Origin: Candidatus Jordarchaeales archaeon | Lineage (GTDB): Archaea > Asgardarchaeota > Jordiarchaeia > Jordiarchaeales > Freyrarchaeaceae | Length of the DNA: 32,000 nucleotides | Direction: 5' to 3' | Assembly (NCBI GenBank): GCA_038858525.1 | Contig: JAWCFL010000021.1 | Coordinates: 731 to 32,730, forward strand | Shown here: positions 4,563 to 30,456 of the stretch, one piece after another | Position numbering within the stretch: position 1 is the first letter of the stretch | How the letters are laid out: each line of letters starts with the position of its first letter | Notes under the pieces: model-generated | Told to the model about the DNA's origin: nothing | What the model saw: only the letters and a program-made list of their open reading frames with translations | The model's database searches: none | Made by a program: the position numbers and the translations under genes

Positions 4563-4687
4563 GGGGTGGGCGGATGATGGCGCGAAAACCCCAGAACTAT
4601 TTCTGTTTCGTGTGGTTTTATCCCCCCTCCCCCTCACTGCAGAAATAGACAAAATGGGGTTGTGAAACCGCCCGCCCACCCGAAACA
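4563..4687 (+). ncRNA. Candidate structured non-coding RNA of unknown family
   Basis: Nested stems 4564-4573/4672-4681 (10 bp), 4587-4593/4655-4661 (7 bp) and 4597-4605/4640-4648 (9 bp). GC island in an AT-rich spacer, with an upstream TATA and a downstream pyrimidine/T tract. Confidence 0.6.
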
Positions 4688-4735
4688 TTTTACAAGAACT
4701 TCTCCTCTTTTCTTCTTATAGAAGACCCTATCGGG

Positions 4736-5897
4736 ATGAGGTTCATGTGGCGTGCTATAAGGCCAGACTCCATCAGTGTTTGGAGCAATGAGCAGGTTCT
4801 AACTCGACTTAAGCGCTACTACGCTGTCCTTAAAGATGAAAAACCGGCTAAAATGCTTGTGGCCAGAAAAGTGGAAATTGAAGACGACCTCAACGTTCCA
4901 ACAGACAAACTCTGGCATCAACACCAAAGGGCTAGTGGAAAGTTCCGTAGCCTTCTCAAAGAAGTAGACCAAGGTAAAATTAATCTAAAAGATTTAGACA
5001 CTCCGAAAACCTCGTACTTAGACCTAAAATTGGAGCTTGCTAGGCGAATACTGGCAAGCTGCCACTTCTGTGAAAGAAGGTGCGGCGTGAACAGACTGGA
5101 AGGCAAACATGGCGCCTGTCAGCTTAACGCAAAGGCGTACGTCTCTTCAGCATTCCTTCACTTTGGAGAAGAAGCTCCACTAGTGCCATCAGGCACAAAC
5201 GCCCGAGTTTCTCTCTGGCGGTGCAATCTTCTTCAACATGTGCACGTTTAAGTGTGTCTTTTGTCAGAACCACGATATCTCTACGGCAATAGATGGCGTT
5301 GAGGTAAACGGAGAGAAACTAGCTAGTTTAGCTCGCCACCTTAAGAGAGAAGGCGCACGAAACATAAATTACGTCGGTGGAGACCCAACTCCTTCCGCTC
5401 ATGTAATCCTTGAAGCCATAAGAAATCTCGCGTATACGGAGACAAACATTACTCAGCTTTGGAACTCTAACTTTTACTGTAGCAAAGAGTTAATTATTCT
5501 TCTGCTTGACGTCATGGATTTCTGGCTTCCCGATTTTAAGTATGGAAACGACGAATGCGCTGAGCGTCTCTCCAAGGTTAAGCGTTACTTCGAAGTAGTA
5601 TCAAGAAATCATAAGCTGGCATATGATGAGACAGTTGTAGAAGGCACTTCAGGCATGATCATACGCCACTTGGTTCTGCCAGGACATTTAGATTGTTGCA
5701 CGAAGCCGATTTTGGAATGGATCGCTGAAAACACTCCGTTGGCTCTCGTGAATGTAATGTCGCAGTATCACCCTGACTACCTAGTGCCTCAAAACCCTGA
5801 TTACAGAGAAATAAATCGCAGAGTAACAGTTAAAGAAATGAAGGAAGCATACGAGTACGCAGACAAACTAGGTTTAGTATGGAGACCAGTCAGTTAA
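4736..5897 (+). CDS. PflX-like radical SAM protein, intron-split: join(4736..5198,5227..5897), 377 aa
   Basis: The two ORFs are halves of one protein. The spliced reading HFGEEAPLVPSGTIFFNMCTFKCVFCQNHDIS restores CxxxCxxC. N-terminal CHFCERRCGVNR; C-terminal RHLVLPGH and NVMSQYHP. Confidence 0.88.
5199..5226 (+). other. 28-nt BHB intron in the radical SAM mRNA
   Basis: Central helix GCAC(5193-96)/GTGC(5221-24), bulges AAA(5197-99) and AAT(5225-27), intron stem CGCC/GGCG. Canonical cuts restore the frame. Confidence 0.88.
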
Positions 5898-6076
5898 ACT
5901 CTGTATTTCAAAAAGCATCATTTTTGCGCGTTGCTGTTTCGGGCATCTAACTTACGCCAACAACCCTCTGTTATTTAAGTCCGATATGACGTCGATTGTA
6001 ATGATTCTTTTGGTTAAGGCCGATTTAAGCTTCGCCTTTATAATTTAAGTTGAGGGTGGGCGTCATTGCGTGATAA

Positions 6077-7105
6077 TCACCATTTTGTCTCCCTACATTC
6101 CCCGACAATTGCAATTTTTTCGTTGCAACGTGGGCATCTGCCATCCTTAAGGTTACATTTCTTTACTATGAAGCCGTATCTTTCGATCACTTTTTCGTTA
6201 CACTTCGGACAGTAAGTGTCCTCTCCTTCCCCAGGCATGTTTCCCATATACACGTAGTGTAACCCTTCCTCCCTCGCTAACTTCCACGCTTTGGCTATCG
6301 TTGAAGGAGGTGTGGGCGGAAGATTACTCAACTTATAGTGGGGGAAAAACCTTGAGAAGTGAACTGGCATATCTAATCCCGCGTTTTCCTTAACCCATCT
6401 GGCGAACTCTCTTATTTCTTCTTCGCTATCGTTCAGCGTTGGTATTATCAGGTAAGTCAACTCTACATGTATCCCTTCCTCTTGCATAATAAGAATATTA
6501 TCCAGCACTGGCTTTACGCTTGGCGCCTTGCAAATCTTTCTATAAAATTCATCTTTCATTGATTTGACATCTACGTTTGCCGCGTCTATGTAAGGCGCAA
6601 TTTCTCTGAGCGGTTCCTCCATTACGTAGCCGTTTGTTACAAGTACGTTCTTTATTCCCTCCTGATGAGCAAGTTTTGCCACATCGTAAACGAATTCATA
6701 CCATATGAATGGCTCATTATACGTGTACGCTATAAATTTACTGCCGCTTCCCTTAATACGCCTAACTATTTCTTCTGGTGAGAAATCCCTTGTAAAACCA
6801 CTTTCTATCGATGCTTGCGAAATCTCCCAGTTCTGACAGTTCTGGCAGTGGAGGTTGCAGCCGACAGTTGAAATGGAGAATATAGGCGAACCAGGATAAA
6901 AGTGGAATAAAGGCTTTTTCTCTATAGGGTCTACAGCCATTGATGAAACTGACCCATAAACCAAAGTGAAAAGCGTTCCTCCTCTGTTTTCTCGGACACC
7001 ACAGCCCCCTCGTCTTCCTTCTTTAATAATGCATTTCTGAGGGCAAAGAAAACAAACAACCGTCCCATCGTCCTTAACCTCATAGAACAAGGCGTTCTTA
7101 ATCAT
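6077..7105 (-). CDS. AmmeMemoRadiSam-system radical SAM enzyme
   Basis: N-terminal C..CP..C, DPIEKKPLFHFYPG, GCNLHCQNCQNWEISQ, YTYNEP, HFSRFFPHY, C-terminal Cys pairs. Confidence 0.9.
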   Translation of the reverse strand: MIKNALFYEVKDDGTVVCFLCPQKCIIKEGRRGGCGVRENRGGTLFTLVYGSVSSMAVDPIEKKPLFHFYPGSPIFSISTVGCNLHCQNCQNWEISQASIESGFTRDFSPEEIVRRIKGSGSKFIAYTYNEPFIWYEFVYDVAKLAHQEGIKNVLVTNGYVMEEPLREIAPYIDAANVDVKSMKDEFYRKICKAPSVKPVLDNILIMQEEGIHVELTYLIIPTLNDSEEEIREFARWVKENAGLDMPVHFSRFFPHYKLSNLPPTPPSTIAKAWKLAREEGLHYVYMGNMPGEGEDTYCPKCNEKVIERYGFIVKKCNLKDGRCPRCNEKIAIVGECRETKW

Positions 7106-7278
7106 AATCCTTCACACGCCCTCAAGATGTCTACCTTCGCCTATATTTATATTAACTTGGAGATATTTTTCAGTTTCGCAAAAGAAAAATAACAGTAGTC
7201 GTCCCCCAACAAAGTAACTAAAAAGTTTTTACGGGAAAGTGTTCAGTCTCCATTTAGAGAAAGAAATGGAGGGCCCGG

Positions 7279-8169
7279 ATGGACACGCCGGATAACACCG
7301 TGCTTGTTGCAGGATCCGCTTCTCAAATGCTGGCGGTCAGGATAGCCCGTGTCCTTGGGGTAAATATTGTCCCAGTATCCTCTAAACTTTTTCCTGATGG
7401 TGAACTTTACATACGTCTTCTTTCATCACTTAATGGGCGCAAGGTAATTATTGTCCAGTCGACTCCTCCCCCTCAAAACTCAAATCTGCTCGAGCTCTTT
7501 TTTCTCATTAACACTGCTGTAGAGCAAGGTGCAGAGAAAGTCGTTGCTGTGGTGCCTTACTTCGCGTATGCCCGGCAGGACAAAGAGTTCCTCCCAGGGG
7601 AGGCCGTTAGTGGGCGTTATGTGTGCCGCATGTTAAGGCATTGTGGCGCCGACATGGTGGTGACCGTAAACATTCATAATAGACGTATATTTGATGGTAC
7701 TGGTATGCCCTTTATTGACTTGAACGCGGTGCCTTTGATAGCGGAACACTTTAAGAACTTCTCATTAAAGAACCCTATGGTTTTAGCGCCTGATGAAGGC
7801 GCGATAGAGGAAGGAAAACTGGTTTCAGAGATGCTCGGTTGTTCTTTCGCTTTCCTCAAAAAAGAGAGAGATAAGCATACTGGGGAGATTGTCACTGAGG
7901 AGAAACAAATGGAACTTAAGGGAAGAGACGTGCTAGTGATTGATGACATAATAAGTACTGGGGGGACTATGGTTAATGCTGTTTCCATAGCTGCTAGGCA
8001 GGGTGCAAGAAACATATACGTTGCCTGCGTTCATCCTTTACTAGTAGGGGAAGCCCGTCTCAGAATACTTAGCGCGGGTGCAAAGGAAATAGTTGGAACT
8101 GATAGTGTGCCAAGTGATGTAAGCCTTATCTCTCTAGCTTCTTTAATTGCTGGTGCGTTAAAAAATTGA
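7279..8169 (+). CDS. prs: Ribose-phosphate pyrophosphokinase
   Basis: FPDGELY, PYFAYARQD, APDEGA, VIDDIISTGGT motifs. Confidence 0.95.
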   Translation: MDTPDNTVLVAGSASQMLAVRIARVLGVNIVPVSSKLFPDGELYIRLLSSLNGRKVIIVQSTPPPQNSNLLELFFLINTAVEQGAEKVVAVVPYFAYARQDKEFLPGEAVSGRYVCRMLRHCGADMVVTVNIHNRRIFDGTGMPFIDLNAVPLIAEHFKNFSLKNPMVLAPDEGAIEEGKLVSEMLGCSFAFLKKERDKHTGEIVTEEKQMELKGRDVLVIDDIISTGGTMVNAVSIAARQGARNIYVACVHPLLVGEARLRILSAGAKEIVGTDSVPSDVSLISLASLIAGALKN

Positions 8170-9200
8170 TACAGCGCTTCTTTTTCTTATTATCAGGAGA
8201 AAATGAAGCTCTTTCTTGGGGAGAATGTAAGGCGTTGCTGGAGGCTAGCGGCTCCCCCTTTAAATTCTCAACTTTAAAACAAGTTCTTATAGCTGAGACC
8301 ACCTATGACTCCGCTCGCTTCGTTTTGGAGCGCGCCGCTATGTGCCACTATGGTTGCTTGCTCATCGCGAAATTACCTTTCTCACTCAAACAAATTTCTT
8401 CCGCTATTTCGTCGTATGAATCCGGCATTGCTTCAATAATTTCGTCCAGTGATTCGTTCGCCGTTAGAGTGCGTTGCGTTAAACCAACATTTCACAGAAT
8501 TGATACATTAGCTCTTGAGAAGGTACTGGGGGAAACTGTGAGGAAGATCACTGGAGCAAAGGTAAATCTGGAAAATCCAAATAAACTTCTCATAGGAGTC
8601 CTAACAGAGGGTTGGTTCTTGTTCGGCTTATGTCTTGGCCGTTCCGCCCGGAAAAGTCTTGGGTTACGTTCCCTCCGTTACAGGCCTTTTATGACGCCTT
8701 CATCTATGACGCCTTACATTGCAAGGACAATGGTTAACTTATCCAGGGCAACTCCTCGTGACATTTTTTTGGACCCATTCTGCGGTAGTGGAAGTATACT
8801 TATCGAAGCAGCACTGGTCGGATGCCGCATCATAGGATGCGACATAGACCCAAGAATGGTTAATGGCGCCAAAGCTAACCTTACATATTACGGCTTAAAT
8901 GGAGAACTAACGTTAAGTGACGCCCGTCACCTTCCTTTTTCATGCGCCGACAGGGTCGTGACGGATCCACCCTATGGCCGTGCCGCGTCAACAAAGGGAA
9001 TACCCCTCAAAAAACTTCTTCAAGGTTTTCTATCCTCTGTAGAAAGTGTGCTTGGCAAGAAAGGTTGGCTCTGCATGGCTTCTCCCTCAAATGTGGATGT
9101 AGAAAGCTACATGAATATGTATGGCTTCCAAGTAATCGAGACCTATCATATACGAGTTCATGAAAGTCTCACGAGAAAAATAATTGTTTCTCGGAAATGA
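8166..9200 (+). CDS. THUMP + methyltransferase, tRNA m2G10 methyltransferase (Trm11/TrmG10-like)
   Basis: THUMP-like SFAVRV...VNLENP, LDPFCGSGSILIEA, TDPPYGR. Confidence 0.85.
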   Translation: MIQRFFFLLSGENEALSWGECKALLEASGSPFKFSTLKQVLIAETTYDSARFVLERAAMCHYGCLLIAKLPFSLKQISSAISSYESGIASIISSSDSFAVRVRCVKPTFHRIDTLALEKVLGETVRKITGAKVNLENPNKLLIGVLTEGWFLFGLCLGRSARKSLGLRSLRYRPFMTPSSMTPYIARTMVNLSRATPRDIFLDPFCGSGSILIEAALVGCRIIGCDIDPRMVNGAKANLTYYGLNGELTLSDARHLPFSCADRVVTDPPYGRAASTKGIPLKKLLQGFLSSVESVLGKKGWLCMASPSNVDVESYMNMYGFQVIETYHIRVHESLTRKIIVSRK

Positions 9201-9215
9201 GGCAGGTGCTATCCC

Positions 9216-10154
9216 TTGATAAGAGTAGTTTTCTTGGGTACGTCAGGTAGCGTTCCTACAAATCAAAGAAACCTTCCCGCAATTGCACTGCGCCGTAACA
9301 AGGAGATACTCCTTTTCGACTGCGCAGAAGGTACGCAAAGACAAATGCTAAAGGCAGGGTTAAGTATAAGTCGAGTTTCGAGAATTTTTATATCGCATCT
9401 TCATGGAGACCACGTAATGGGGTTACCAGGAATAATTCAAACTCTTTCTCTCATGGAGAGAGAAACCCCTCTGCACGTTTACGGCCCCTCTAACCTCTCA
9501 GGCTTTATAGATTCCCTTGTAGAACACTTAGAGTTCGCCGCCTCTTTTGAGATTTGCGTCCACAGCGCTCATCCAGGAATCATTTTTGAATCCTCCGACT
9601 ATCTTGTCAAGTGCGAACGAGTCGACCATGGTCTAGTTGAAGCCTACGCTTACGCCTTTGAAGAGAAACCTAGACCTGGAAAGTTTCATCCTGAAAAAGC
9701 CATTACGTTAGGTGTACCTATTGGTCCTCTCTGGAAGCAACTTCAGTTAGGGAAAAGCGTGTCTTTGAAAGATGGACGCGTAGTATACCCTGAAGAAGTC
9801 GTGGAGCCTCCAAAGTTAGGAAGAAAAATCGTTTATTCTGGGGACACCGCCCCTTGTCAGTCTCTCCTCAGAATGAGTAGCTTTGCAGATGTTCTAATAC
9901 ACGAGAGCACGTTTGACCAGAGTCTTGAAGGTAAAGCCATTGAGACGAAACATTCGACAAGCACGCAAGCTGCGCTGGTTGCCCGCGAAGCAAATGTTAA
10001 ACTCCTCGTACTAACACACATCAGCTCAAGGTATACTGATCCGAACGTGCTACTTCAGCAAGCAAAAGAAATTTTCGCCAACACAATAATCGCTCAAGAC
10101 TTCACAGAGGTACTTATAGACTTGGAAGGCTGCATAAAAATAATTTCTCCTTAA
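9216..10154 (+). CDS. rnz: Ribonuclease Z
   Basis: FLGTSG..P, FDCAEGTQ, SHLHGDH, flexible arm GVPIGP, YSGDT, HESTF, LTHISSRY. Confidence 0.95.
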   Translation: MIRVVFLGTSGSVPTNQRNLPAIALRRNKEILLFDCAEGTQRQMLKAGLSISRVSRIFISHLHGDHVMGLPGIIQTLSLMERETPLHVYGPSNLSGFIDSLVEHLEFAASFEICVHSAHPGIIFESSDYLVKCERVDHGLVEAYAYAFEEKPRPGKFHPEKAITLGVPIGPLWKQLQLGKSVSLKDGRVVYPEEVVEPPKLGRKIVYSGDTAPCQSLLRMSSFADVLIHESTFDQSLEGKAIETKHSTSTQAALVAREANVKLLVLTHISSRYTDPNVLLQQAKEIFANTIIAQDFTEVLIDLEGCIKIISP

Positions 10155-10278
10155 TAGCGAGAAAACTCATAAACCTCCTAGAAAAGAACAGCTTAAATCT
10201 ACTTTTAGAAACAACGTCTTTCTAAGGAGTTTTATTTAAACTGCACCAGTACTTCGTTTTTTATTTCTTTCGTGACGG

Positions 10279-10707
10279 TTAAGCGTCAGTGGGTGGTGCT
10301 GCCTCCTGCGGCTTCCCGTTTATTGTAGGTGGACAGAGCCACTCAACTACTTCATCTATCTTACTGCTTTTTATTGTTACCTTTATTGCTCCCATTGGTG
10401 ACTCTCTTTCAGGGGCGCAGAAATGTACCTTTCCCACGTATGCCGCCTGCTTGTTCAGAAAAAAAGTTAGCTCGTCCCCTTTAATTCCCTTCTTTAAAAT
10501 TCCTCTTGCTGCTTCGACAATGTATTGTCCACGCAGTTTTTCATAGAGTTGCCGTAGATGCTCTAACCCCTCCGCCTCACCAACCATCTTCTTGTCTTCA
10601 CCTTCTCCGAAAACTTGGTAATCAACGTTCAAAACGTTCTTTAGTGCCCTCACAACTTTATCCGGGTCCTCTGTCGGCTTTAAGGGCGTCTCCACTCTTA
10701 TTTTCAT
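10279..10707 (-). CDS. UPF0201/DUF54 putative RNA-binding protein
   Basis: PTED..KV..AL.N and LNKQAAYVG motifs. Usual partner of UPF0200. Confidence 0.85.
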   Translation of the reverse strand: MKIRVETPLKPTEDPDKVVRALKNVLNVDYQVFGEGEDKKMVGEAEGLEHLRQLYEKLRGQYIVEAARGILKKGIKGDELTFFLNKQAAYVGKVHFCAPERESPMGAIKVTIKSSKIDEVVEWLCPPTINGKPQEAAPPTDA

Positions 10708-11251
10708 TTATTATCCTCCCAAGAATCTCCTTCACCTTTGCTTTAAACTCCTCTATTCTTCCTTCATTAACTATCATGTAATCTGCCAAAGCTAGGGCAG
10801 CTCCTACACCTACTTGCAGCTCCCTCTCGTCTCTTTCAATAAAATGCTTTATCGTTTTAGGGTCATCCTCTCTCCCCCTCGCCGCCAACCTTTTTAAACG
10901 AGTTTTTGGAGACGCATAAACACCGATTAACACAAAGTCCGAGTATCCCTCTTTAAACGCTTTGACTTCAGCTAAACTCCGCACCCCCTCCACAACAACC
11001 ACATCTGAATCCTTCGCATCTATTTTTGACATGCATTTCCTTGCCACTACGTCTTCACCCTCTTCCTCCCTAATTTTAATCATAATCCTCCCTATGTTTT
11101 CTGGGGACGGTGGAATCCCTTGTAGAGCCGCCACTTCACGTATGACGTCTCCCATAGAAACCACAGGTAGCCCTTCATTCCTCGCCACCTGCGCTGCAAC
11201 ACTTTTTCCACTGCCAGGCATACCGACTATACCTATCACCTTTTTTTTCAA
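10658..11251 (-). CDS. UPF0200 P-loop kinase (dephospho-CoA/nucleotide kinase-like)
   Basis: GMPGSGKS, SMGDVIRE, RL..RGREDD, RDEREL..GVG. Confidence 0.85.
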   Translation of the reverse strand: MKKKVIGIVGMPGSGKSVAAQVARNEGLPVVSMGDVIREVAALQGIPPSPENIGRIMIKIREEEGEDVVARKCMSKIDAKDSDVVVVEGVRSLAEVKAFKEGYSDFVLIGVYASPKTRLKRLAARGREDDPKTIKHFIERDERELQVGVGAALALADYMIVNEGRIEEFKAKVKEILGRIINENKSGDALKADRGPG

Positions 11252-11274
11252 TGCCTCCCACCCGGGGGTTTACA

Positions 11275-12408: not shown

Positions 12409-12411
12409 TCT

Positions 12412-13630
12412 TTACCCCTCTCGTTCCATTATCTCGCTGAACTCTAACACTTTAAGCTCAGGTGGTTTTTTAACTATGTTTTCTTGGCGTACCCCTACAA
12501 TCCATTTTACTCCCTTCTCCTGCGAGATATCAATGAGTCTTTGTGTCACTATACCATCTAAAATTACGGCTCCAACTTTCTCATTGAAGCTTCGAAGGAA
12601 ATCTGCGAGCTCTGATACGTCGACTTCAGCCATCATGTTAAGTGCCTCCCCCAGGATCCTCGCCTTACCCGAGCCGAAAACTGCATTTGAATGATCAGTT
12701 ATCTCCTGCGGAACCTTAGTTGCTTTTTTAATTATCTGCACTTTCTTTTCTTCACGCTTCTTCCAGCTCTCGTGTTCAGCGATTTGCTCGACGGGAACCT
12801 TATTGCTCAAGGCCTTCATAATCTCCTTAAATGTAAGCTCTTCAACTTCGCGGCCGGGAGGCGCCCTCGCCACATAGTCTATTTCTGCAATTTGCAGCAA
12901 CTCCTTTAAGATTAAGTCACCACCTCTATCACCATCTAAGAAGGCTGTAACGGTCTTTCTCTTGCTAAGTTCAACGATAGTTCTAGGAACACTTGTTCCC
13001 TCCACCGCTATAACGTTCTTAAAACCATACTTTAGCATGTTCAAGACGTCAGCTCTACCCTCAACTACGATGATCTCATCCGCTGAATCTATTTCTGGCC
13101 CGGCGGGTAACCCCTCCTTTCCATACTTACAGATTTCCTCGACTCTTGCCGCTTCAATGACTTTATTAATTATTTGTTCAGTTTCAGGGGAAACCTCCTC
13201 AGACCATCTTCTGAGAATTTCAATAGCTCGTTCGACGATCCTCTTACGCTTACTTTCTCTTACATCCTCTATGGACTCAAAGGTTACTTTAGCACTGCAT
13301 GGACCAATTCTATCAATGGTTTCAAGTGCCGCCGCAAGAATAGCTGTCTCAACCTTATCAAGACTCGAAGGGATAAATATCTCCCCTACAGCTTTTCCTC
13401 CATGCGTCTCAATCTCTGCCTTTATTCGCCCTATCCTACCCGTACGTTGGAGCTCCCTTAAGTCCATCTCGTCGCCGAGAAGCCCCTCCAATTTGCCTAC
13501 GTGAGCCCTCAGCTCTACGTAATTGGCCGAAAATCGCACCTATAACATCAGGCTTCTCGACGACACCATTTACCTCTATTTTAGCTTTTATAATATATTT
13601 TATCGTGCCAACATCATTTCGGTTAGCCAT
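12412..13630 (-). CDS. dnaG: Archaeal DnaG (exosome-associated toprim protein), intron-split: complement(join(12412..13491,13523..13630)), 395 aa
   Basis: ATG at 13630 follows GGAGGTGA. Exon 1 reads KYIIKAKIEVNGVVEKPDVIGAIFGQ and exon 2 reads LEGLLGDEMDLRELQRTGRIGRI...VVEGRAD...LDGDRGG. Confidence 0.9.
13492..13522 (-). other. 31-nt relaxed BHB intron in dnaG mRNA
   Basis: Minus strand GGCC-AAT-[TACGT A GAGC TGAGG GCTC ACGTA]-GGCA-AAT. Cuts after AA in both bulges give CAA|TTG GAG, in frame. Confidence 0.82.
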
Positions 13631-13724
13631 ATGAACATCACCTCCAAATTCATCCGCATTGAAGTTAAATGGTAACTGGGTATTGCAAGTTAATGTGCAC
13701 ACTCCTTATTTACTTCCAAGGTTT

Positions 13725-14156
13725 TCATGTTACTAATTCCAAATTTGCTTTTTCAAATAAATTAACATTCTCCCTTCTCGTGTTTTCAGCTTTAAAGTAA
13801 AGTTTAGCAAATCCCTCTACGCATGGCGTTACATGTGCCTTTAACTTTCTTATTTTTCCTCTAAAGTATACTGTCAATTTATCGTTTTCCACTCTATAGG
13901 ATAGTATCGTCTCCGCTAATCTCTCTCCTTCTTCATCAAAGTCCGTTAAAACTATCACCTCTCTTCCTCTGCTCTTCTCAGCTATTTCATGCAACCTTGC
14001 TCCTGAAACAGTTACTATCGGTCCGCTAAATCCTATTCTCCTTAAACTAGCCTCATCCCTCTTTCCTTCAACTATGAGCGGGACTCCATTATTCGAGTAT
14101 TCTTTCATTTCATCCAATATCTCCCTGAACATCTCCAGTATGTCCTCATTCACCAA
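13725..14156 (-). CDS. Small toprim-domain protein
   Basis: LIVEGKRDE..L and VIVLTDFDEEG toprim motifs. Confidence 0.85.
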   Translation of the reverse strand: MVNEDILEMFREILDEMKEYSNNGVPLIVEGKRDEASLRRIGFSGPIVTVSGARLHEIAEKSRGREVIVLTDFDEEGERLAETILSYRVENDKLTVYFRGKIRKLKAHVTPCVEGFAKLYFKAENTRRENVNLFEKANLELVT

Positions 14157-14294
14157 GCTTATCCTTTCCCCTCTTATCCAAAGACTTAAAGGAACTTCGA
14201 CTTTAACTCTGAGAGAATATTTTCTCCTAAATTATTTTAAACATAGCGCTTTGTAAAGAGGCGTCTTCAAAGCCGTAATAATTAACTCTCCTCT

Positions 14295-18152: not shown

Positions 18153-19313
18153 ATGGCTGAGAGGCTGTTTAAAATTGCCACAGAAATAGCAGAAGAAGCC
18201 ACTAAAAATGACAGGAAAGGCAATTATAAACAAGCTTGTCAGCAATACTTGCAGGCAGCAGAGATTCTTTACAAATGTATACAGCTGACGAGGAACCCCC
18301 AGCTTAGGGAGGTCTACTTCGAAAGGGCGCAGAAATATGTTAACCGGTGTAAGCAGATTAAAACCACTCTTGCAAAGCCGCACCAGCCCTCCTTATCTGT
18401 CGAGACTAGAGAAAAAGGAGAAAAGGGAGATGGAGGCGAATTAGCTGAGGCGATCGCTGAAACTATACTTGTCGAGAAGCCATCTGTTAAGTGGGATGAC
18501 GTGGCTAATCTCGAAGCGGCTAAGAAGGCTCTCCGTGAAGCGATAATCCTTCCCATGTTAAGGCCAGACTTCTTCAGGGGCGCTCGAAAACCCTGGAAGG
18601 GAATTCTGCTCTTCGGTCCTCCTGGTTGTGGGAAGACTCTTCTAGCAAAGGCTGTGGCATCAGAAGTTAATGCTCACTTCTTTAATGTATCTGCCGCAAC
18701 GCTGGTAAGCAAGTGGCTTGGCGAGTCTGAGAAGCTGGTGAGAGAACTTTTCAGAACGGCAAGGAGTAAGCAGCCAGCGATAATCTTTATCGACGAAATC
18801 GACAGCATAGCTACCACTAGGGACAGAGAAGAGGTAGGTGGGGAAAGGAGGCTTAAAACCCAGTTCATGCAGGAGATCGACGGCGTTACTTCTTCCGATA
18901 AGGATCGAATTGTTGTTTTGGGGGCCACCAATGTGCCTTGGGAGCTTGATCCTGCAGTACGTAGACGCTTTGAAAAGCGAATATACCTTGGATTACCTGA
19001 GTTTGAAGCGCGACGTGAAATATTCAGAATACATACGAAAGGCGTCGACCTGTCTAGCGACGTGAACTTTGATGAGTTAGCAAAGCTAACAGAAGGTTTC
19101 TCTGGAGCAGACATAGCGATCCTCTGCCGGGAAGCCCTAATGGCACCCATAAGAGAGCTGGATGAAGCCGGGCTCTTAACTAAGAGCGACGTGAAGATCC
19201 GTCCAGTAACACGAGACGACTTCCTCGAAGCATTAAGAGTAGTTAAGCCGTCAGTCTCCCCCTCCGAATTAACGAAGTTCAAGGAGTGGGCTAAAGAGTT
19301 CGCCATTGACTAA
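18153..19313 (+). CDS. vps4: Vps4-like AAA ATPase with N-terminal MIT domain
   Basis: MIT three-helix pattern (A...D..GNYKQA...Y..A.E), RKPWKGILLFGPPGCGKT, VSKWLGESEKLV, IFIDEIDS, RRRFEKRIY. Confidence 0.88.
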   Translation: MAERLFKIATEIAEEATKNDRKGNYKQACQQYLQAAEILYKCIQLTRNPQLREVYFERAQKYVNRCKQIKTTLAKPHQPSLSVETREKGEKGDGGELAEAIAETILVEKPSVKWDDVANLEAAKKALREAIILPMLRPDFFRGARKPWKGILLFGPPGCGKTLLAKAVASEVNAHFFNVSAATLVSKWLGESEKLVRELFRTARSKQPAIIFIDEIDSIATTRDREEVGGERRLKTQFMQEIDGVTSSDKDRIVVLGATNVPWELDPAVRRRFEKRIYLGLPEFEARREIFRIHTKGVDLSSDVNFDELAKLTEGFSGADIAILCREALMAPIRELDEAGLLTKSDVKIRPVTRDDFLEALRVVKPSVSPSELTKFKEWAKEFAID

Positions 19314-19330
19314 ACCAAGGAGGCGTCTCT

Positions 19331-20014
19331 ATGGAAAAAATGAGAGAGAAAGAAGAAAAGCGTGAAAAGGAAGTTGAAGAAAAAAGGGAGCACTCTCACT
19401 CTATAGAAGACGCCACGAGGAAGCCCTTATTAGTTGACGAACTTGAACATGTCATGCAAAGAATTTCTGAAGCCGAGGCTTTGCTTTTAGGGGTGCCTGC
19501 GAAACCCATAATGGTCCTCCGTCCTCCACCCATTCCGGAGTGGAGTGTTAAAAGTCCTTGGATGTTCACCAAGCCAAAAGAGGAGCGTTTTCTTAAGTCT
19601 TGGCGAGAAGAGTGGGCTAAGTACGTTCTTGAGTGGGCTGAAGCGCTATTAATTCACCTAATAGGAGTAAACGAAATGCTCTCAAGAGATCTTTTCAAAA
19701 ATCTTTCTATTGACGACCTAGTAGATATACTAGACTATATGTGTCTTAAAAACTGGTGTAAATGGTGGGATAAGAAAAAAACGCTTATTAGAATTTACTG
19801 GAAATCCCTTGAAGAATGGAAAGAAGTAATATGGTCATGGGCTGTTAGCCAAGGACTTGAGTACATAAGTGTAATGGACCTCGCTAACGTTAAAGAAGCA
19901 TTCAGCACAATTCCTCGAGAAGAACTTGAATTTCTCCTCAATAACTTGGTTAAGGAGAAACGGGCTGTATGGGCTGATAAAAAAACCAAAACAATAAAAC
20001 TGATTTTTACTTAA
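19331..20014 (+). CDS. Vps25 (ESCRT-II)-like tandem winged-helix protein with charged/proline-rich N-terminal extension
   Basis: PWMFT.P...SW..EW..YVL and IYWKSLEEW..VIWSW resemble the Vps25 PPFFT/W and YWR..EEW motifs. Directly follows vps4. Confidence 0.65.
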   Translation: MEKMREKEEKREKEVEEKREHSHSIEDATRKPLLVDELEHVMQRISEAEALLLGVPAKPIMVLRPPPIPEWSVKSPWMFTKPKEERFLKSWREEWAKYVLEWAEALLIHLIGVNEMLSRDLFKNLSIDDLVDILDYMCLKNWCKWWDKKKTLIRIYWKSLEEWKEVIWSWAVSQGLEYISVMDLANVKEAFSTIPREELEFLLNNLVKEKRAVWADKKTKTIKLIFT

Positions 20015-20045
20015 TTACTCTGGACGTGTTCTGGGAAGAATTTAC

Positions 20046-23693: not shown

Positions 23694-23706
23694 TACTCTT
23701 TCTTCT

Positions 23707-24099
23707 TTATCCAGCTGGGGAAACCCCCCCTTGAAGAGCTGCTTGAATCTTCTCTCGCATCTCCTCCAGTTGTTGCCTTGAGCGCTCCTCCTGCCTTTTA
23801 AGGGTCTTTATCCTAGTATCAATGCTCACCTTTAAATCTTCTAGCTCCCCTTTAACCTTACTAGGGTCCGCTTTAACCAAGAGAGGTCCAACTATCTTGT
23901 AAACTGCATCCTCTGGTTTCACGCCTTCCAATTCTTTAAGCGCCATCTCTGTCTCCCTTAGTTGAATTTCAAGTTGAGTGCGTTGGGATATCAGCAACTC
24001 CAAGCTCTGTTGGAGCTGTTGCATCCTAATTATCTGTTGTTGAATTTGAGGGGGAATCTCGCTTGACGTTATTTTAAGTCCCTCCTTTAACAATCTCAC
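23707..24099 (-). CDS. pfdB: Prefoldin beta subunit (start uncertain)
   Basis: IPPQIQ, coiled coils, VYKIVG.LLVK, superoperon position. Confidence 0.92.
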   Translation of the reverse strand: MRLLKEGLKITSSEIPPQIQQQIIRMQQLQQSLELLISQRTQLEIQLRETEMALKELEGVKPEDAVYKIVGPLLVKADPSKVKGELEDLKVSIDTRIKTLKRQEERSRQQLEEMREKIQAALQGGVSPAG

Positions 24100-24328
24100 A
24101 TATATCGCATATCGTCTTTACCCACCTTAAATAGGCGTTAAGCGCCGCTCTAAAAGCAACAGTATCGCTCGCCTCAAACTCGAATGTTAATTTACCGTCC
24201 TCCTTTTTTAATTTTCCTATGTACCTCTCACTTATTCTTTCTCTTGTCTCTGGAAGAATAGCCCTAAAGATCGTTTCCGAATACTCAGTTTCCAACTCTA
24301 CTACTGCCCTAATTTTTTTAACATTCAA
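24074..24328 (-). CDS. pcc1: KEOPS subunit Pcc1
   Basis: IF.AI.PE...ASD..A.RAALNAYLRWV; superoperon position. Confidence 0.85.
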   Translation of the reverse strand: MNVKKIRAVVELETEYSETIFRAILPETRERISERYIGKLKKEDGKLTFEFEASDTVAFRAALNAYLRWVKTICDICEIVKGGT

Positions 24329-24843
24329 AGTGAACCCAACCTAAGTACTTTAAACTTTATCCGTGGCCCTACTTCCTCTCCTCCTATTTTAAAGTCCATT
24401 ATGAATTCTTCTCCACTCGAACTTATCGTGATCGACACCACTTTATTTTCCTCATCATCTCTGCTTACTTCAAAAATTTTAGATAAAAACTTTGTCAGTT
24501 CCGTTTGCTCCTTGCTCTCTATTACTACTCTCTCAACTTTCCCTATTTTTCCATCTTTTCTGATCTCTCTTTGAAGTTTTACTCCCTTTACTCTAAATAT
24601 TGCTAATGGTTTTTTTACGTCTGTCGCGCTCGCACGGTAAAAAAGCATGCTTCCGGGGTTTCCTTTCCATGTCTCAACTATGAGCACATAGGGAAGCCCT
24701 CTCTGGGCTGCTTCAGCTAACACTTCGTATACGCTCTTTTTTCCTCTATTTATTTTAACAGCTCCGGGAATAACCTGCGCAAGATCCTTACAGAAACTTC
24801 TAACCCGTCTCGTCGGCCGCCTAGATGTGGTTATCAGGATCAT
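24325..24843 (-). CDS. Brix-domain ribosome biogenesis protein
   Basis: MILITTSRRPTRRVRSF..DL, INRGK, C-terminal GPR. Confidence 0.9.
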   Translation of the reverse strand: MILITTSRRPTRRVRSFCKDLAQVIPGAVKINRGKKSVYEVLAEAAQRGLPYVLIVETWKGNPGSMLFYRASATDVKKPLAIFRVKGVKLQREIRKDGKIGKVERVVIESKEQTELTKFLSKIFEVSRDDEENKVVSITISSSGEEFIMDFKIGGEEVGPRIKFKVLRLGSL

Positions 24844-24844
24844 C

Positions 24845-25108
24845 CTATTCTTTCAGTCCCTCTATCGCTCTTCCTTTCTCCTTTCCTGCTCCAGTAATGG
24901 GGACATATGCTCCACCAGCAAAAGTATACCCGCATTTTTTACAGGACCATATTCCTATAGAAACACGCTTAACTGCTTTCGTATTGCAGCTGGGACACTT
25001 ATGTTTTTGCTTCATCTGAACTTCTATTTTTCTTAACCTATCCCTTATACGTAACCCGTATCTAGCTCCAAATCTTCCCGCTGGTCCTACTTTCTTAGTT
25101 CTACCCAT
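24845..25108 (-). CDS. rpl37ae: Ribosomal protein eL43 (L37ae)
   Basis: [21 protein letters not shown]...[17 protein letters not shown] at 25108. Confidence 0.97.
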
Positions 25109-25114
25109 CGACAA

Positions 25115-25936
25115 TCAGCTCCCTCTATTTTTTAGTAATGGCATGAAATACTTTTCACGTATTTCTTTTCCTTTTTCGATCGCTATTTCTAATGCTTCAT
25201 TAATATCTTTCTCACTTAAGACCCCATCCTCGCTTTTCTGAACAGCAACCACCCTGCCTTCTTTATCTGTTACTATAGTGAGCCGGCATTCCATTGCTCT
25301 TTCTTCATCTAACATTGGATCGAGGAGGATGTGTTCTCCAATCTTGCTGAACGTAAGTGAGACCGGCAAATCTCTTATTGGTAAGAGTTCCTTATCGTCT
25401 AAGCGCTTTACTTCGCCGTTTTTCACTTCCACTTTAGGTATTCTTGTTGAGAGGAGAGCTGCAACTGCCGCATACGATGCGGCGTCAAAAAGATTTCCGT
25501 TATCGTCAAGAATGTAAAGGTCTATAAAGAGAATCCAAACTTTTTCTCCCGGGATTATGCAAAGTTTTTCCATATCTACCATTTCAGTTTCTCTTATACC
25601 TCTATCAACTACCCGGGCTAGCTCTATAGCATCTTCTTGTGGAGGGCCTGCTTCAAATAATGGAGACGCCAAAGGAATAAGCTCTGCGTTACAAGTGATA
25701 ACACCTTTATTCGGCTCATCCGGAAACGGAGCACCTATCTCTGCTTTGACTCCCGCAATGACCTTTGTTTCGCCTAAGGATACTTTAGCGGACCCCTCCG
25801 CTTTCTTAATGAGCTCCGTCTCTATAGTTATAGGCCTCATTTCTCTCAGTGTTCTTCCATCTGCTCTTCGTCCCTTGTTTGCCAAGGAAATAATGAATCT
25901 TCTCTCAATTTCCGAAAGGACGTCATGCATTCTCAT
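25115..25936 (-). CDS. rrp42: Exosome subunit Rrp42
   Basis: [36 protein letters not shown]. Confidence 0.96.
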
Positions 25937-26699
25937 CTCCTCCTTCTTCCTCTTCTTCTTCAGACTCTTTTCTTACTGCCATGTATCTTTCTATCAGTGC
26001 TTGCCTTTGAAGTTTATATATCTCCATGCATCCGTCTATTGCCATTTTGTACGCCTCAATAAATTCTTCTTTAGTCATACGCCCATCCATCTGTAGAAGT
26101 GTAATAAACCGTTTTCTAGGCATAACTGCTACCGGCATATCCGCTTCTCCCAGTTTGTCTTCAACGTCGTTAGGATCTAAAACTAGTTGTCCATTGACTT
26201 TACCTACGGCGCAGGCAGTAACAAGGTCCCGCATAGGTACACCTGCATCTGCAAGCGCTAGGGACGCCGCTGTTATGCTTGCGCACCTTGTACCTCCATC
26301 AGCCTGAAGTACTTGAATATAAACATCTATAGTTGACCTTGGAAAGTTCTTGAGGAATATTGCAGGCGCTAGAGCACCTTTGATCACTTTTGATAACTCC
26401 AGTTCTCTTCTTGAAGGCGCTGGGTTTTTTCTTTCCTCCACCGAAAAAGTAGCCATCCTGTAAACGCATTGCAGAATTGCTGTATCTGGTCTAGCTAAGT
26501 GTTTTGGATGCAACTCCCTTGGCCCGTAAACGGCCACAAGAATTTTGTTGTTTCCCTGCTCTATATACGCTGATCCATCAGCTCTCGAAAGTACGCCTAC
26601 CTCAAGTTTTATCGGTCTAAGCTCACGAGCGCCTCTACCATCCACTCTAATGCCGTTTTTTAAAAGTTCTTCTCGAGAATATTTACTACCTGAATTCAT
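25923..26699 (-). CDS. rrp41: Exosome subunit Rrp41
   Basis: [36 protein letters not shown]. Confidence 0.97.
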
Positions 26700-26718
26700 T
26701 GGTTTTCCTCCATTCGCC

Positions 26719-27405
26719 TCAAGTTTTTTGGGAAATTAATTCTCGTATTCTATCAGTAAGTCCCGTCGTGTGCGCTTCTTTTTCAATCTGCCTTATTGCT
26801 TTAACAACCAGCTCCTCACTTTCTGGGCTACTACCAGACACCCAAATTAACCCATTCTGCCCTATTACGATTTGGCATTCTGTCTTCTTCTTGATCATAT
26901 TTATCATTGACCCTCTCCGTCCGATAAGCCTCGGTATCTTCGTAGGTGCCATTCTCACTAGTCTTCCCCCCTCAAGCTTTCTAAGATTTTTTTCTTTCAT
27001 AGTAAGTACTGGAGGTTGTGTTCTATCAAATGCCAAAATCTTTGCAACTATTAAGTCTCCAATATCATATATTCGTCGCAAATCCGTTTTAACGGGGTCA
27101 ACTGGTTTTCCTGAGACATTCATAGGGCTAAGGGTAGCTAGATAGGGAGCAAGTATGTCAACATCCCAAGAAGTTAACTTGACATTAACTATTTTACCTA
27201 TAACAGTATCGCCCGGTTTGGGCATGTAAACGCCTTCGAGAGGGACGACAACCACACTGTCCTCTCTAATTTCTGCCAGTCCAATTACTGTTGCCAGAAT
27301 TTTGTCTCCTTCTCTAAATGTTCCTTCACCGGACTTGAACTTATTTCCTTCAGCCAATATTTCGCCCGGAAGCACAATCTGTCTTTTTTTAACGTGAACA
27401 ACCAA
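26719..27405 (-). CDS. rrp4: Exosome subunit Rrp4
   Basis: [39 protein letters not shown] start after GGAGG. Confidence 0.95.
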
Positions 27406-27448
27406 CGTCGTTTCCTCCTTTTTCCTAAAAAATATTTTCAATAGGTTG

Positions 27449-28168
27449 CTAGAGAAATTTGATTTCTGCTTTGCCCTTGGTTGCCATGTTGACCGCATTT
27501 ATTAATTGTCCTTTTAGCCCTCCTGGTATTTCGATCAGAGCTATCCAAGAACCGTCGGCTTGCCACTCCCCCTTAACTATGTTCCCTAATCTTTCTAGGA
27601 CGCTATATCCTTTCCCTGCATGTTCTGGTGGGAATTTAACGGCTACTCTGATCGTCTCCATTTTTATAGGGATCACTTTCTGTATTTGTTTGAGAACGTC
27701 TTTTACCTGTTCTTCTGCGCTTCTCCAAATATCTATTTGGACCTTTGCCTCCTCCATTGCGTTTTCGATTCGTGTGGGTGGATGGGGGAGCCCTGTCTGA
27801 GGGTTTACACATGTCCTAGCTAAGATCGCTATTATCTTCTTCTTTTTTTGTTCCAAGAATTCGCGGCGTTGCTCTTGGGTTAGTTGCAGCTCACCTTTTT
27901 TTAATATGACCTTTGCGACTTCGAAGACGTCTGTTGTACCAAAGACTCTTTCTATGTCCTCTTCTGTTGCTTTTTCCCCTCTACGTGCGTTTTCATATAT
28001 TACGAAGGTTTGAATTATATCTGTGGGATCCACATTTTTTCCCGTCTTATACTCCCAAGCTTTCCTAACATCCACTAATATTTCAAATGTTTTCCCCTCT
28101 TTCTCGTATCTGGCGATCGATGTATTTTCTCCGAATTCTACTCTTTTTTCTCCTCTAATCTGTGACAT
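27449..28168 (-). CDS. SBDS/Sdo1 ribosome maturation factor
   Basis: G..FEILV, FGTTD, GELQLT.EQR, PHPPTRIENAMEEA. Confidence 0.95.
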   Translation of the reverse strand: MSQIRGEKRVEFGENTSIARYEKEGKTFEILVDVRKAWEYKTGKNVDPTDIIQTFVIYENARRGEKATEEDIERVFGTTDVFEVAKVILKKGELQLTQEQRREFLEQKKKKIIAILARTCVNPQTGLPHPPTRIENAMEEAKVQIDIWRSAEEQVKDVLKQIQKVIPIKMETIRVAVKFPPEHAGKGYSVLERLGNIVKGEWQADGSWIALIEIPGGLKGQLINAVNMATKGKAEIKFL

Positions 28169-28187
28169 AAAGCATCTTTCCTCGCCT

Positions 28188-28904
28188 TTAACTTAGGTTT
28201 TCAATATATTTCTGTACTTCTTCCGCTGACAGTTTACGGAATTTTTTCGTTTGTACGTCAACTATGGCGATCTCCACTCTTGAGGCGTCGAATTCCCCTT
28301 CAAGAACTGCTTTCAAAGCGGTTAAAGACAGTTTAATTCCTTCCTCTAAGTTTAAATCTTTCTTATATTCTTTCTCAAGTATCTCTTTTGCTTTTTGTGA
28401 ACCGGCACCTATTGCTGTAGCCCAGTATCCCCAGTAGGTTCCCGACGGGTCAGTCATAAAAAGTTTAGGGCCTGCATCGTCAACTCCTGCGATGAGGAAA
28501 GAGACGCCGAAGGGTCTAACTCCTGCATGTTGTGTGTAAACTTGTTTTAAATCTCCGATATATTTTGTTAAGCTTTCAACGCTGATTGGCTCATCGTAGC
28601 TTAACTTATTAACTTGAGCTTGAACACGTGCTTGATCTACGAGGACACGTGCATCTGCGGTTAGACCCGCTATCGCAGCACCTATATGTTCATCTATTAC
28701 AAAGATCTTTTCTACGCTTTCCGGGTCTTGAAGTGATAAAATTCTTTTTTCGACAGCTAATACTACTCCATCTTTACATCTGACTCCTATAGCAGTAGTT
28801 CCTCTTCGGACAGCTTCAATGGCATATTCAACCTGGAAGAGCCTTCCATCGGGAGAAAATATTGTGATAGCTCGGTCATAGCCTAAACCTGGCGCAGCAA
28901 ACAT
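28188..28904 (-). CDS. psmA: Proteasome alpha subunit
   Basis: GYDRAITIFSPDGRLFQVEYA, GLTADAR, RPFGVS. ATG at 28904 after GGGAGGG. Confidence 0.97.
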   Translation of the reverse strand: MFAAPGLGYDRAITIFSPDGRLFQVEYAIEAVRRGTTAIGVRCKDGVVLAVEKRILSLQDPESVEKIFVIDEHIGAAIAGLTADARVLVDQARVQAQVNKLSYDEPISVESLTKYIGDLKQVYTQHAGVRPFGVSFLIAGVDDAGPKLFMTDPSGTYWGYWATAIGAGSQKAKEILEKEYKKDLNLEEGIKLSLTALKAVLEGEFDASRVEIAIVDVQTKKFRKLSAEEVQKYIENLS

Positions 28905-29061
28905 ATCTTGAACCCTCCCTGCCTCATTACTGTTTAACTTTGACAAAGCCTTTAGCTCGCTACCTTAGAAAACTCAAACAGGTTTATTTATTTTTCTACC
29001 CTTTTTATCGGTTTCCTCTTTCACAGTAGCTCATCAAGGCATGTTTTCAAAAATAGCTTTT

Positions 29062-29607
29062 TCATACTATGCTTTCTATTTTTTCCTCCAATTCTCTTTT
29101 GCAAACATGGCAAAACTCCTTCTTTTTAGCATCCGTTTCATATATGCTATTTGAAAAATGCATCACGCAATAGCTTCTTGGGCAATGTTTTAGGAAGAAT
29201 GTGTGACCTAGTTCGTGGACAGCTTCTTTTATCATCCTTTCGAAAAACTTTTTTTCGTCATGTGGCTCTCCGTAGAACCCCGGTCTAAGTCTATTCGTCG
29301 AAATTAATGCCGCATTACCGCCATACTCTGCTAATCCAAAAACAAAGTTTAAGCTTGGCACATACAAGTCTACTTGTGTTACCCCAAGCACTCGGAACCC
29401 CTTTCTTCTTTTTAACTCGTTAAGAATCTCTTCTGCGTTATACTGTCCCCTTTGGTGATTGTAGGCGAAATCTATAGAAAATCCCTCATCCTCTACTACT
29501 GTAAAGCTTAACCAGTGGAAAATTCGTGGTAGCTCATGGGCGAGTTTAACTATGTTGGTTAAGAAATCGTGTGATACTTTTATCGGTAAAATACGCGCCT
29601 CTCTCAA
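29062..29607 (-). CDS. Archaemetzincin Zn metalloprotease
   Basis: RGQY, LNFVFG, HELGHTFFLKHC...CVMHFSNS...D...FC..C. Confidence 0.93.
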   Translation of the reverse strand: MREARILPIKVSHDFLTNIVKLAHELPRIFHWLSFTVVEDEGFSIDFAYNHQRGQYNAEEILNELKRRKGFRVLGVTQVDLYVPSLNFVFGLAEYGGNAALISTNRLRPGFYGEPHDEKKFFERMIKEAVHELGHTFFLKHCPRSYCVMHFSNSIYETDAKKKEFCHVCKRELEEKIESIV

Positions 29608-29670
29608 GATAACCCTTCCATTGCTTGCTGTTTTTATATTTTCTTGAAGGACATATTAAAGGGTGTTTAG

Positions 29671-30012
29671 GTGAATCGCCTTAGCTGGAAATTAACCAGC
29701 TCTTTACTCATAACAACTTTTTCTCTCCTAGTTCATACTCCTGTAGCCTTGCACTCGTTGCTTATTTTATCTGCTGCCTCCTCAGAGCGTACGGTTGCTT
29801 TACTCGTAGTTTTTTGGCTGCTTCTCTCCATAATAGCATCTTTTTCGTTTAACTGGGTAATGCTAATTCCTTTATCTCTAATATTTGTAGCGACATTACC
29901 CATTGCAATAGCTATCGCCAACCAAAATTCAGCAATAATAAATTTTCTCTTAACAAACATCACAATAACCTTTATAACAATCATATTGAGATCAACAGCG
30001 AACCTTACCTAA
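29671..30012 (+). CDS. Hypothetical small membrane protein (113 aa)
   Basis: GTG start after AGGGTG, upstream TTTTTATA, several hydrophobic segments. No family recognised. Confidence 0.45.
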   Translation: MNRLSWKLTSSLLITTFSLLVHTPVALHSLLILSAASSERTVALLVVFWLLLSIIASFSFNWVMLIPLSLIFVATLPIAIAIANQNSAIINFLLTNITITFITIILRSTANLT

Positions 30013-30150
30013 AAAGCAACTATTAATTCTCATATTAAAGCTAAGCTCAACAGTAAGCACTTTATTAAAACTGTTTTCTAATTGTTGTGATTGACGCGGG
30101 GGGCGGGATTTGAACCCGCGCTCCCCGAAAGGGGAACTGGCTCTCAAGGC

Positions 30151-30179
30151 TTCCGCTCGGGACCCTACATGACCCCGAC
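30151..30179 (-). other. 29-nt tRNA intron at position 29/30
   Basis: GCGC-TGG-[8-bp stem]-GCGG-AAG. Canonical cuts rebuild a perfect 5-bp anticodon stem. Confidence 0.85.
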
Positions 30180-30189
30180 CAGCGCCGTT

Positions 30190-30200
30190 TTACGTTTTAT
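30190..30200 (-). other. About 11-nt D-loop tRNA intron (BHL-like)
   Basis: GCGG-ACA-TAAA-ACGT-AAA. Removal leaves GCC-AAGCGGACAAC-GGC. Exact boundaries uncertain. Confidence 0.6.
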
Positions 30201-30456
30201 GTCCGCTTGGCTACCCCCGCTCAACTTCAAACATCCCTATTTCTCTCACTTGTTTAATCTCCTTTTTCTCCTTTAAATTTTTAATCAACTAGATGTATCG
30301 CGTTTTAACGTTTTGAACTTTAACTCTTACCGGTACTTTTACTGGTATCCGGGCAAACATATATTTAAATAATCTATATACTTGTTATTTCTGAACTTTC
30401 TCGGTTAATCCTTTGCTAAGGCGCTTCTATTATGATTATGATGGAGGTGTTAAAGC

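Follow-up and report, generated by a model that had tools for sequence, protein, structure and literature searches.

In eukaryotes, HAC1/XBP1 mRNA undergoes non-spliceosomal cytoplasmic splicing by Ire1 together with RtcB or Trl1, and in archaea the pre-16S and pre-23S rRNAs carry a processing stem that holds a BHB (bulge-helix-bulge) motif and are circularised, as are other stable RNAs. Archaeal pre-mRNA splicing has been confirmed for cbf5 alone (PMC2738675, Yokobori et al. 2009); the BHB intron of that gene is found in the Crenarchaeota (Aeropyrum, Sulfolobus and Desulfurococcales) and was originally reported in 2002 (PMC2738675). Multiple non-canonical tRNA introns are described for the Thermoproteales and the Freyarchaeia/Atabeyarchaeia in two reports (PMC11291895; bioRxiv 10.64898/2026.10.13.758758), which where searched treat tRNA genes only; the intron passages found in the former concern tRNA genes only, and the word "mRNA" does not occur in the latter. 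Here we describe a 32-kb stretch of DNA (G000:C21:731-32730, hereafter the window) from a Jordarchaeales genome (G000; 2.09-Mb assembly, 63 contigs), in which a radical SAM gene, dnaG, a tRNA-Ser(UGA) gene and a small non-coding RNA locus carry BHB junctions. We consider it very likely that in this Jordarchaeia (Asgard) genome BHB introns of the EndA/RtcB type occur in many protein genes as well as in tRNAs and at least one small RNA.

The protein-gene inserts resemble the crenarchaeal cbf5 intron in that a short BHB insert lies within a conserved open reading frame (ORF), its removal by the tRNA-splicing machinery would restore the protein and, for the two window genes, relatives have the insert at the same site and outgroups lack it. 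The cbf5 gene of G000 itself has an in-frame, stop-containing BHB insert of 30 nt (GTL^DP; here and below the caret marks the insertion point in a protein or the predicted cut in a nucleic acid). Unlike the crenarchaeal case, at least 13-16 genes are concerned, in an Asgard lineage, with inserts of 16-50 nt and mostly weak outer helices. HAC1/XBP1 splicing is similar in that an mRNA is cut at paired stem-loops by an endonuclease and its exons are joined by a tRNA ligase, which in metazoa is RtcB, with a change of reading frame, but it differs in that the nuclease is Ire1 and not EndA and in having a single regulated target under stress control. The finding is a known mechanism in a new and much wider form.

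For all junctions we applied the register of the canonical tRNA 37/38 intron, the geometry of which was reportedly set out by Marck and Grosjean in 2003 (cited in PMC11291895). In this register the last six nucleotides of exon 1 are the 4-nt strand of the central helix and two bulge nucleotides, after which the cut follows; the intron consists of the third nucleotide of the 5' bulge, the inner hairpin, the complementary 4-nt strand and two bulge nucleotides, and exon 2 starts with the third nucleotide of the 3' bulge. Comparisons were made with G002 (same genus as G000), G004 (same family) and G011, an intron-poor Asgard genome from a different family (complete, 1.42 Mb) that served as the control. 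All five BHB junctions listed in a first-pass annotation of the window were present (two in mRNAs, two in tRNA and one in the small RNA), although the two tRNA junctions proved to be introns of one and the same tRNA-Ser(UGA) gene.

Exon 1 of the radical SAM gene, which belongs to the PflA/PflX-like activase family, occupies positions 4736-5198 (plus strand; 154 codons plus 1 nt, ending in HFGEEAPLVPSGT) and aligns collinearly with the N-terminal half of homologues of 366-383 amino acids (aa) that lack the intron. It is followed by a 28-nt BHB intron (5199-5226, plus strand; GCAC AA^A CGCC..GGCG GTGC AA^T) and by exon 2 (5227-5897, plus strand), which holds the CxxxCxxC cluster motif and the remaining domain and has a Pfam Radical_SAM match. 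In the genomic sequence the gene appears as two overlapping ORFs in different frames (4736-5251 and 5238-5897), the downstream one matching Radical_SAM only from profile position 7. The intron has a perfect central helix (GCAC/GTGC), an inner helix (CGCC/GGCG) and a 13-nt loop. Excision of 5199-5226 rejoins HFGEEAPLVPSGT-IFFNMCTFKCVFCQN, i.e., SGT-IFFNMCTFKCVFCQN, which recreates the SGTIFF...CxxxCxxC motif, and the spliced protein would have about 377 aa. The insert is found at the same codon in eight Jordarchaeia/Freyarchaeia loci with lengths of 27, 28 or 31 nt, including a 3n case with an in-frame TGA. These orthologues keep GCAC (GTAC in L013) and GTGC, and their inner helices differ in sequence yet pair; RNAalifold on seven of the loci recovered the central helix, a 3-nt bulge and the inner helix. 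The insert was absent, with SGTIFF uninterrupted, in the Hod-, Borr-, Hel-, Thor- and Asgardarchaeum genomes.

The dnaG gene, encoding the archaeal DnaG primase/exosome subunit, is present in a single copy in G000 and shows a comparable arrangement on the minus strand. Exon 1 (13523-13630; 36 codons, ATG at 13630) aligns to the N-termini of uninterrupted DnaG proteins, the BHB intron has 31 nt (13492-13522; GGCC AA^T TACGT..ACGTA GGCA AA^T), and exon 2 (12412-13491) matches Pfam Toprim families and encodes 359 aa collinear with homologues. The two minus-strand ORFs, 13436-13702 and 12412-13539, overlap like the radical SAM pair. Excision of 13522-13492 restores a 13-residue junction motif collinear with intron-less DnaG, and the spliced protein would have about 395 aa, with intron-less homologues of 385-417 aa. 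The claim that the mRNA inserts interrupt conserved motifs was upheld; in both genes the motifs are near-invariant and are restored exactly by excision at the BHB sites. A separate small Toprim-domain ORF of 143 aa (13725-14156, minus strand) lies directly upstream of dnaG, and such an ORF also lies upstream of dnaG in the related contigs L198 and L200.

The dnaG insert was found at the same codon in G000, G002, G004 and three metagenome contigs; its lengths in five related genomes are 31/34/31/32/31 nt. The flanking exons are conserved among these relatives, and the sequence of the hairpin varies with its pairing kept. The G004 orthologue has GGTC/GACC as its central helix: a C>T change in the exon, which is synonymous, is matched by a G>A change in the intron, and there is no G.A mismatch. 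An intron of 32 nt (3n+2) occurs in the L198/L199 475-529 population (JGI samples 3300008019 and 3300017406), compared with 31 and 34 nt elsewhere, which shows that the reading frame does not constrain the length of the dnaG insert. The insert was absent in all other families searched; loci L007-L010 and L012 read an uninterrupted GQTEGLLG, and the remaining other families gave unbroken dnaG matches from query residue 2.

These comparisons bear on whether the mRNA instead keeps the inserts and the ribosome gets past them, by programmed frameshifting or by translational bypass (hopping) of the kind known from T4 gene 60. Such recoding would accommodate both inserts being short hairpins, the CAA common to both junctions and the lack of a stop codon in the exon-1 frame of the G000 radical SAM insert. 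However, a take-off from the CAA of dnaG to the CAA at the 3' end of its insert would land out of frame (IGGAS...), and in L015-L018 the radical SAM insert contains stops in the exon-1 as well as the exon-2 frame, so that no single frameshift can bridge it. The insert lengths vary among relatives by 1, 3 and 4 nt with the flanks fixed, differences that would fit a removed segment and not a translated or frameshifted one. In addition, the same geometry is present in tRNA and non-coding RNA, where the ribosome has no role, and matched take-off and landing codons were not found in the other introns genome-wide. We regard recoding as exceedingly improbable and favor removal of the inserts by splicing.

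The first-pass annotation had reasoned that two cases among approximately 40 genes implied more in the remainder of the genome. BHB-likeness by itself was uninformative. The relaxed motif alone had 1.87 million matches in G000, and a filter for the joining of ORFs did not discriminate by itself (38,104 sense vs. 40,812 antisense candidates). The signal lies instead in frame and motif restoration, conservation, the comparison of sense with antisense and the control genome. With candidates limited to those in which excision joins two ORFs, the flanks are in the best coding frame, the folding energy is favorable and the length is ≤60, and with the antisense strand as control, G000 had 132 sense vs. 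70 antisense candidates, or 23 vs. 2 with a 3' bulge of AA. The identical pipeline on G011 gave 23 sense vs. 24 antisense candidates (3 vs. 0 with a 3' bulge of AA).

We also conducted a census that was blind to structure, using tblastn of all G011 ORFs against G000 and keeping collinear pairs of high-scoring segment pairs (HSPs) in different frames, as well as gapped HSPs in which the insertion held a stop codon. Frameshift-type breaks were present at ten loci, and in nine of them a BHB removes exactly the required bases. The nine comprised dnaG and the radical SAM gene, which were thereby re-found (31 and 28 nt), aEF2 (29 nt; DTPGHV^DF), pcm (31 nt; QTISAP^HM), ppsA (20 nt; SASAED^LPGASF), a NuoD/MbhL-like gene (50 nt), hypD (16 nt; CG^THE), a LeuD-like gene (29 nt) and an unnamed gene (29 nt). 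Four in-frame, stop-containing BHB inserts were also identified, in cbf5 (above), in rpl44e and a GatE-like gene (30 nt each) and in a further gene (24 nt), the gene names of the census being a reading of the restored motifs and not database matches. Three more candidates came from the motif scan only (SelD/ThiL-like, one unnamed and FAD-oxidase-like). The interrupted protein genes number at least 13-16, and when the tRNA inserts are included the insert lengths span 11-50 nt. These data support the expectation of further cases.

Not every candidate from these searches was retained. The remaining frameshift-type break, at G000 C14:32862-32910 (minus strand; approximately 14 extra nt relative to the G011 orthologue), had no acceptable BHB; it may be a genuine frameshift, an error of assembly or an intron so short that it falls below the inner-helix threshold. 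Among in-frame inserts lacking a stop codon, BHBs were in no clear excess over antisense (37 vs. 36 at E ≤ -4), and these inserts were not counted. One of this kind, an 18-nt stop-free insert at G000 C23:21917-21934 (minus strand) with BHB geometry, an 8-bp outer helix and one central mismatch, may be an intron of a kind that would always escape gene callers. The best sense candidate in the control genome, a 30-nt hairpin at G011:C1:738042-738071 (plus strand; GCGG TA^A ... CCGT AA^G) that joins two ORFs, may be a rare mRNA intron in that lineage. Several high-scoring "introns", for example at FolD/PurH (C11:29775) and, within the window, at PheRS alpha/beta, ABC/ABC and Vps4/ESCRT-II, were rejected as ordinary gene boundaries. 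A second homology-anchored census based on ungapped extension was less sensitive than the HSP pairs and provided no firm additions.

The first-pass annotation had proposed that the junctions share a sequence grammar, and parts of this proposal held genome-wide. The 3' bulge begins with AA in all five window junctions and in 10 of the 13 homology-anchored mRNA introns, compared with an expectation of about 0.08. The first bulge base is A in 13/13 of these introns at the 5' bulge and in 12/13 at the 3' bulge, against a sense-strand background frequency of 0.275 for A. Because energy and frame, and not the bulge sequence, decided the choice of cut register, this preference for A/AA is real. The C-A-A^T junction was likewise correct for both window mRNA introns. 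By contrast, the purine-purine mismatch described at the same end of the central helix in four of the five junctions is not a rule. It lies at the other end in tRNA intron 1, disappears from the small RNA when the correct register is used and is absent from dnaG of G004; genome-wide, a central mismatch is found in only 3/13 mRNA introns, at either end, with none in the other ten. Both window mRNA introns are 3n+1 in length as had been stated, but this is accidental, since orthologues have 27, 31, 32 and 34 nt and the 13 homology-anchored introns are divided 4/4/5 by length modulo 3.

Pairing in the central helix is complete in the radical SAM intron (4/4) and reaches 3/4 in dnaG (4/4 in G004) and in the tRNA introns. 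The inner helices of the two mRNA introns have 4-5 bp, with up to 10 bp genome-wide and none in tRNA intron 1. Several points weigh against splicing of these transcripts. The outer, exon-exon helix has only 2 bp in the radical SAM gene and 0 bp in dnaG and is ≤2 bp in 8 of the 13 homology-anchored introns genome-wide, and there is a G.A mismatch in the dnaG central helix of G000. In addition, the excess of sense over antisense candidates may be partly inflated by strand composition, and a broad-specificity (alpha-beta)2 assembly of EndA is probable here from only the copy number and divergence of its genes. As the outer helix is weak or absent and the dnaG helix is mismatched, the window mRNA substrates are relaxed BHBs (HBh' form) and not canonical, strict hBHBh' motifs.

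The enzymes that such splicing would require are encoded in G000. We identified one RtcB and two EndA paralogues of 191 and 198 aa (C3:81811-82383 and C43:5666-6259) that are 32% identical, each with PF01974 and PF02778, that is, with a C-terminal domain of the catalytic type as well as an N-terminal one. A pair of diverged subunits is a property of the broad-specificity (alpha-beta)2 enzymes (PMC5829648). In the mechanism we propose, the last six nucleotides of exon 1 in the primary transcript would pair with the 3' end of the insert to give a 4-bp central helix between two 3-nt bulges, and the rest of the insert would fold as an inner hairpin. EndA, in which the two paralogues probably assemble into a heterotetramer of the type that tolerates relaxed motifs whose exon-exon helix is weak, would then cut after the second nucleotide of each bulge, and RtcB would ligate the exons. 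Without splicing, no full-length radical SAM protein or DnaG would be produced. The predicted junction peptides of the spliced window genes are LVPSGTIFFNMCTFK and one of 18 residues. From the motif, the restoration of frames and protein motifs, conservation, recurrence and the presence of the enzymes, we infer that cleavage and ligation take place on these mRNAs. The suggestion that EndA/RtcB splicing has spread from tRNA to several mRNAs is supported by comparative and genome-wide evidence, namely the conservation, the census and the presence of the enzymes.

The tRNA-Ser(UGA) precursor gene (30095-30220, minus strand; 126 nt) carries two junctions of the same type. Its intact gene was missed by default ARAGORN and by Rfam, the T-arm alone being matched in Rfam E-value mode, and ARAGORN with the intron option located it at 30095-30220. 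Intron 1 (30190-30200, minus strand; 11 nt; GCGG AC^A ... ACGT AA^A) is a relaxed BHB in the D-loop without an inner helix, and intron 2 (30151-30179, minus strand; 29 nt; GCGC TG^G ... GCGG AA^G) lies in the anticodon stem at position 29/30. Excision of both inserts gives an 86-nt tRNA-Ser(UGA) that ARAGORN folds as a clean class II cloverleaf, and excision of intron 2 alone gave no ARAGORN tRNA-Ser call. The orthologues in G002 and G004 are identical in their exons, and the differences, of sequence as well as of length, fall exactly within the two intron segments. Intron 1 of the orthologues has 10-12 nt between invariant flanks, with a perfect central helix in G004 (GCGG/CCGC), and intron 2 has 29/31/31 nt with compensating changes in the inner helix (G002, G004). 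Introns are present in 92-95% of tRNA genes in this lineage according to PMC11291895. The two introns of the window tRNA-Ser agree with the tRNA intron load published for the clade there and in the bioRxiv preprint, and the gene resembles most tRNAs of the clade, as described in these papers, in having two introns at non-canonical positions, with the same lineage, motif and enzymes.

The small non-coding RNA (4564-4690, plus strand) is conserved and has a long terminal stem and a canonical BHB (CGCG AA^A ACCCCA ... TGGGGT TGTG AA^A), in which the predicted cuts would free an 80-nt piece, 4587-4666. The other four genomes of the family all share the conserved locus, and all five orthologues have the outer helix, a 4-bp central helix (CGCG/TGTG, CACA/TGTG, CGCA/TGTG, CGCA/TGCG and GCAA/TTGT), two 3-nt bulges and the inner helix. 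The register given earlier for this RNA (GCGC/GTGA, with a mismatch) was one base off and was rejected, as the shifted register pairs 4/4 in the five orthologues. The central helix and the outer helix (3-8 bp) covary among the orthologues, and the 80-nt core has an invariant C-rich inner loop, UAUCCCCCCUCCCCCUCAC. The RNA is like pre-rRNA in its long processing stem and canonical BHB around a conserved core, but differs in that the freed piece would be only 80 nt long, falls in no Rfam family and contains the invariant C-rich loop. We interpret 4564-4690 as a putative BHB-processed small RNA, the core of which may be excised or circularised.

Other readings of this RNA were considered. A search of 4564-4690 gave no Rfam match, and a K-turn or C/D-box small RNA was rejected because box C (RUGAUGA) is not conserved; the box-C-like stretch AUGAUGG of G000 is replaced in the orthologues by AAUAGUGG, AUGACGG and AAUGGUG. 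The loop UAUCCCCCCUCCCCCUCAC resembles an extended anti-Shine-Dalgarno-like CCUCC tract. The locus lies just upstream of the intron-containing radical SAM gene.

The claim that interrupted genes are mis-annotated in public records was confirmed, in that the records give truncated ORFs. In NCBI, JGI, ENA and Logan assemblies, the Jordarchaeales DnaG is called at 348-375 aa, the radical SAM protein at 219 aa, which in the window is the exon-2 piece only, and L44e at 57 aa, compared with full lengths of approximately 395, 377 and 92 aa, respectively. These truncated calls are caused systematically by the inserts. Searches for spliced products returned no spliced form: JGI metagenome contigs held no match to the exact spliced-junction patterns of dnaG and the radical SAM gene, the exon-2 products and rpl44e exon 1 when used as protein queries found only truncated genomic forms among close relatives, and the 90%-identity clusters of these proteins had no member of spliced length. 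The failure of such a search does not equal the absence of splicing.

Truncated records of this kind could also be taken to mean that the genes are broken, whether as pseudogenes, as assembly or sequencing errors, or as genes split by a mobile hairpin into two separately translated polypeptides, and the downstream radical SAM ORF does have an ATG just before its Cys motif. Against this, the same inserts recur in assemblies made independently, by several projects and from several sites (JGI, Logan and NCBI metagenome-assembled genomes), and the exons are under purifying selection, with 79-99% identity and conserved motifs. Decay is implausible for genes of core translation and ribosome biogenesis such as aEF2, cbf5 and rpl44e, and dnaG has no second copy in the genome. 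The split-protein version would leave the conserved BHB geometry and its compensating changes unexplained. Broken genes are therefore a very improbable explanation, and splicing of intact genes is the reading we retain.

A further proposal of the first-pass annotation was that splicing is real and also acts as a condition-dependent on/off switch. This idea draws on the dependence of the full-length proteins on EndA/RtcB activity and on nothing direct. Most of the interrupted genes have constitutive housekeeping roles (aEF2, rpl44e, cbf5 and dnaG), the intron positions look scattered, and no sensor is suggested by the sequence. A regulatory layer of this type thus found no support, and we consider it unlikely.

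The gene content of the remainder of the window is that of archaeal housekeeping functions (PheRS, LysRS, exosome subunits, proteasome alpha, SBDS and prefoldin). At 18153-20014 (plus strand), a Vps4 gene (MIT, AAA and Vps4_C domains) is directly followed by a gene with an ESCRT-II domain (PF05871), and this pair is an Asgard-type ESCRT cluster.

Taken across the clade, it is likely that tens of mRNAs in the Jordarchaeia/Freyarchaeia, including those of aEF2, rpl44e, cbf5, dnaG and ppsA, need EndA/RtcB splicing before translation, that their introns were gained at different times (that of the radical SAM gene before the Jord/Frey split and that of dnaG later), that the A/AA bulge preference is specific to the lineage, and that mRNA splicing of a pervasive and obligatory kind is seen here for the first time in a prokaryotic lineage. 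The bulge preference provides a usable rule for searches. As gene callers truncate the genes that carry inserts in every public Jordarchaeales assembly examined, with DnaG called there at 361-375 aa, metabolic reconstructions and marker-gene sets for the clade are affected. In this Asgard lineage, the mechanism confirmed for cbf5 appears to be used by protein genes, a dozen or more of them, as well as by tRNAs and small RNAs, so that the expression of central genes would be made dependent on the tRNA-splicing machinery. The lineage would offer a natural system for the invasion and persistence of introns in coding sequence without a spliceosome, and it bears on debates on the origin of introns near the archaeal-eukaryotic transition.

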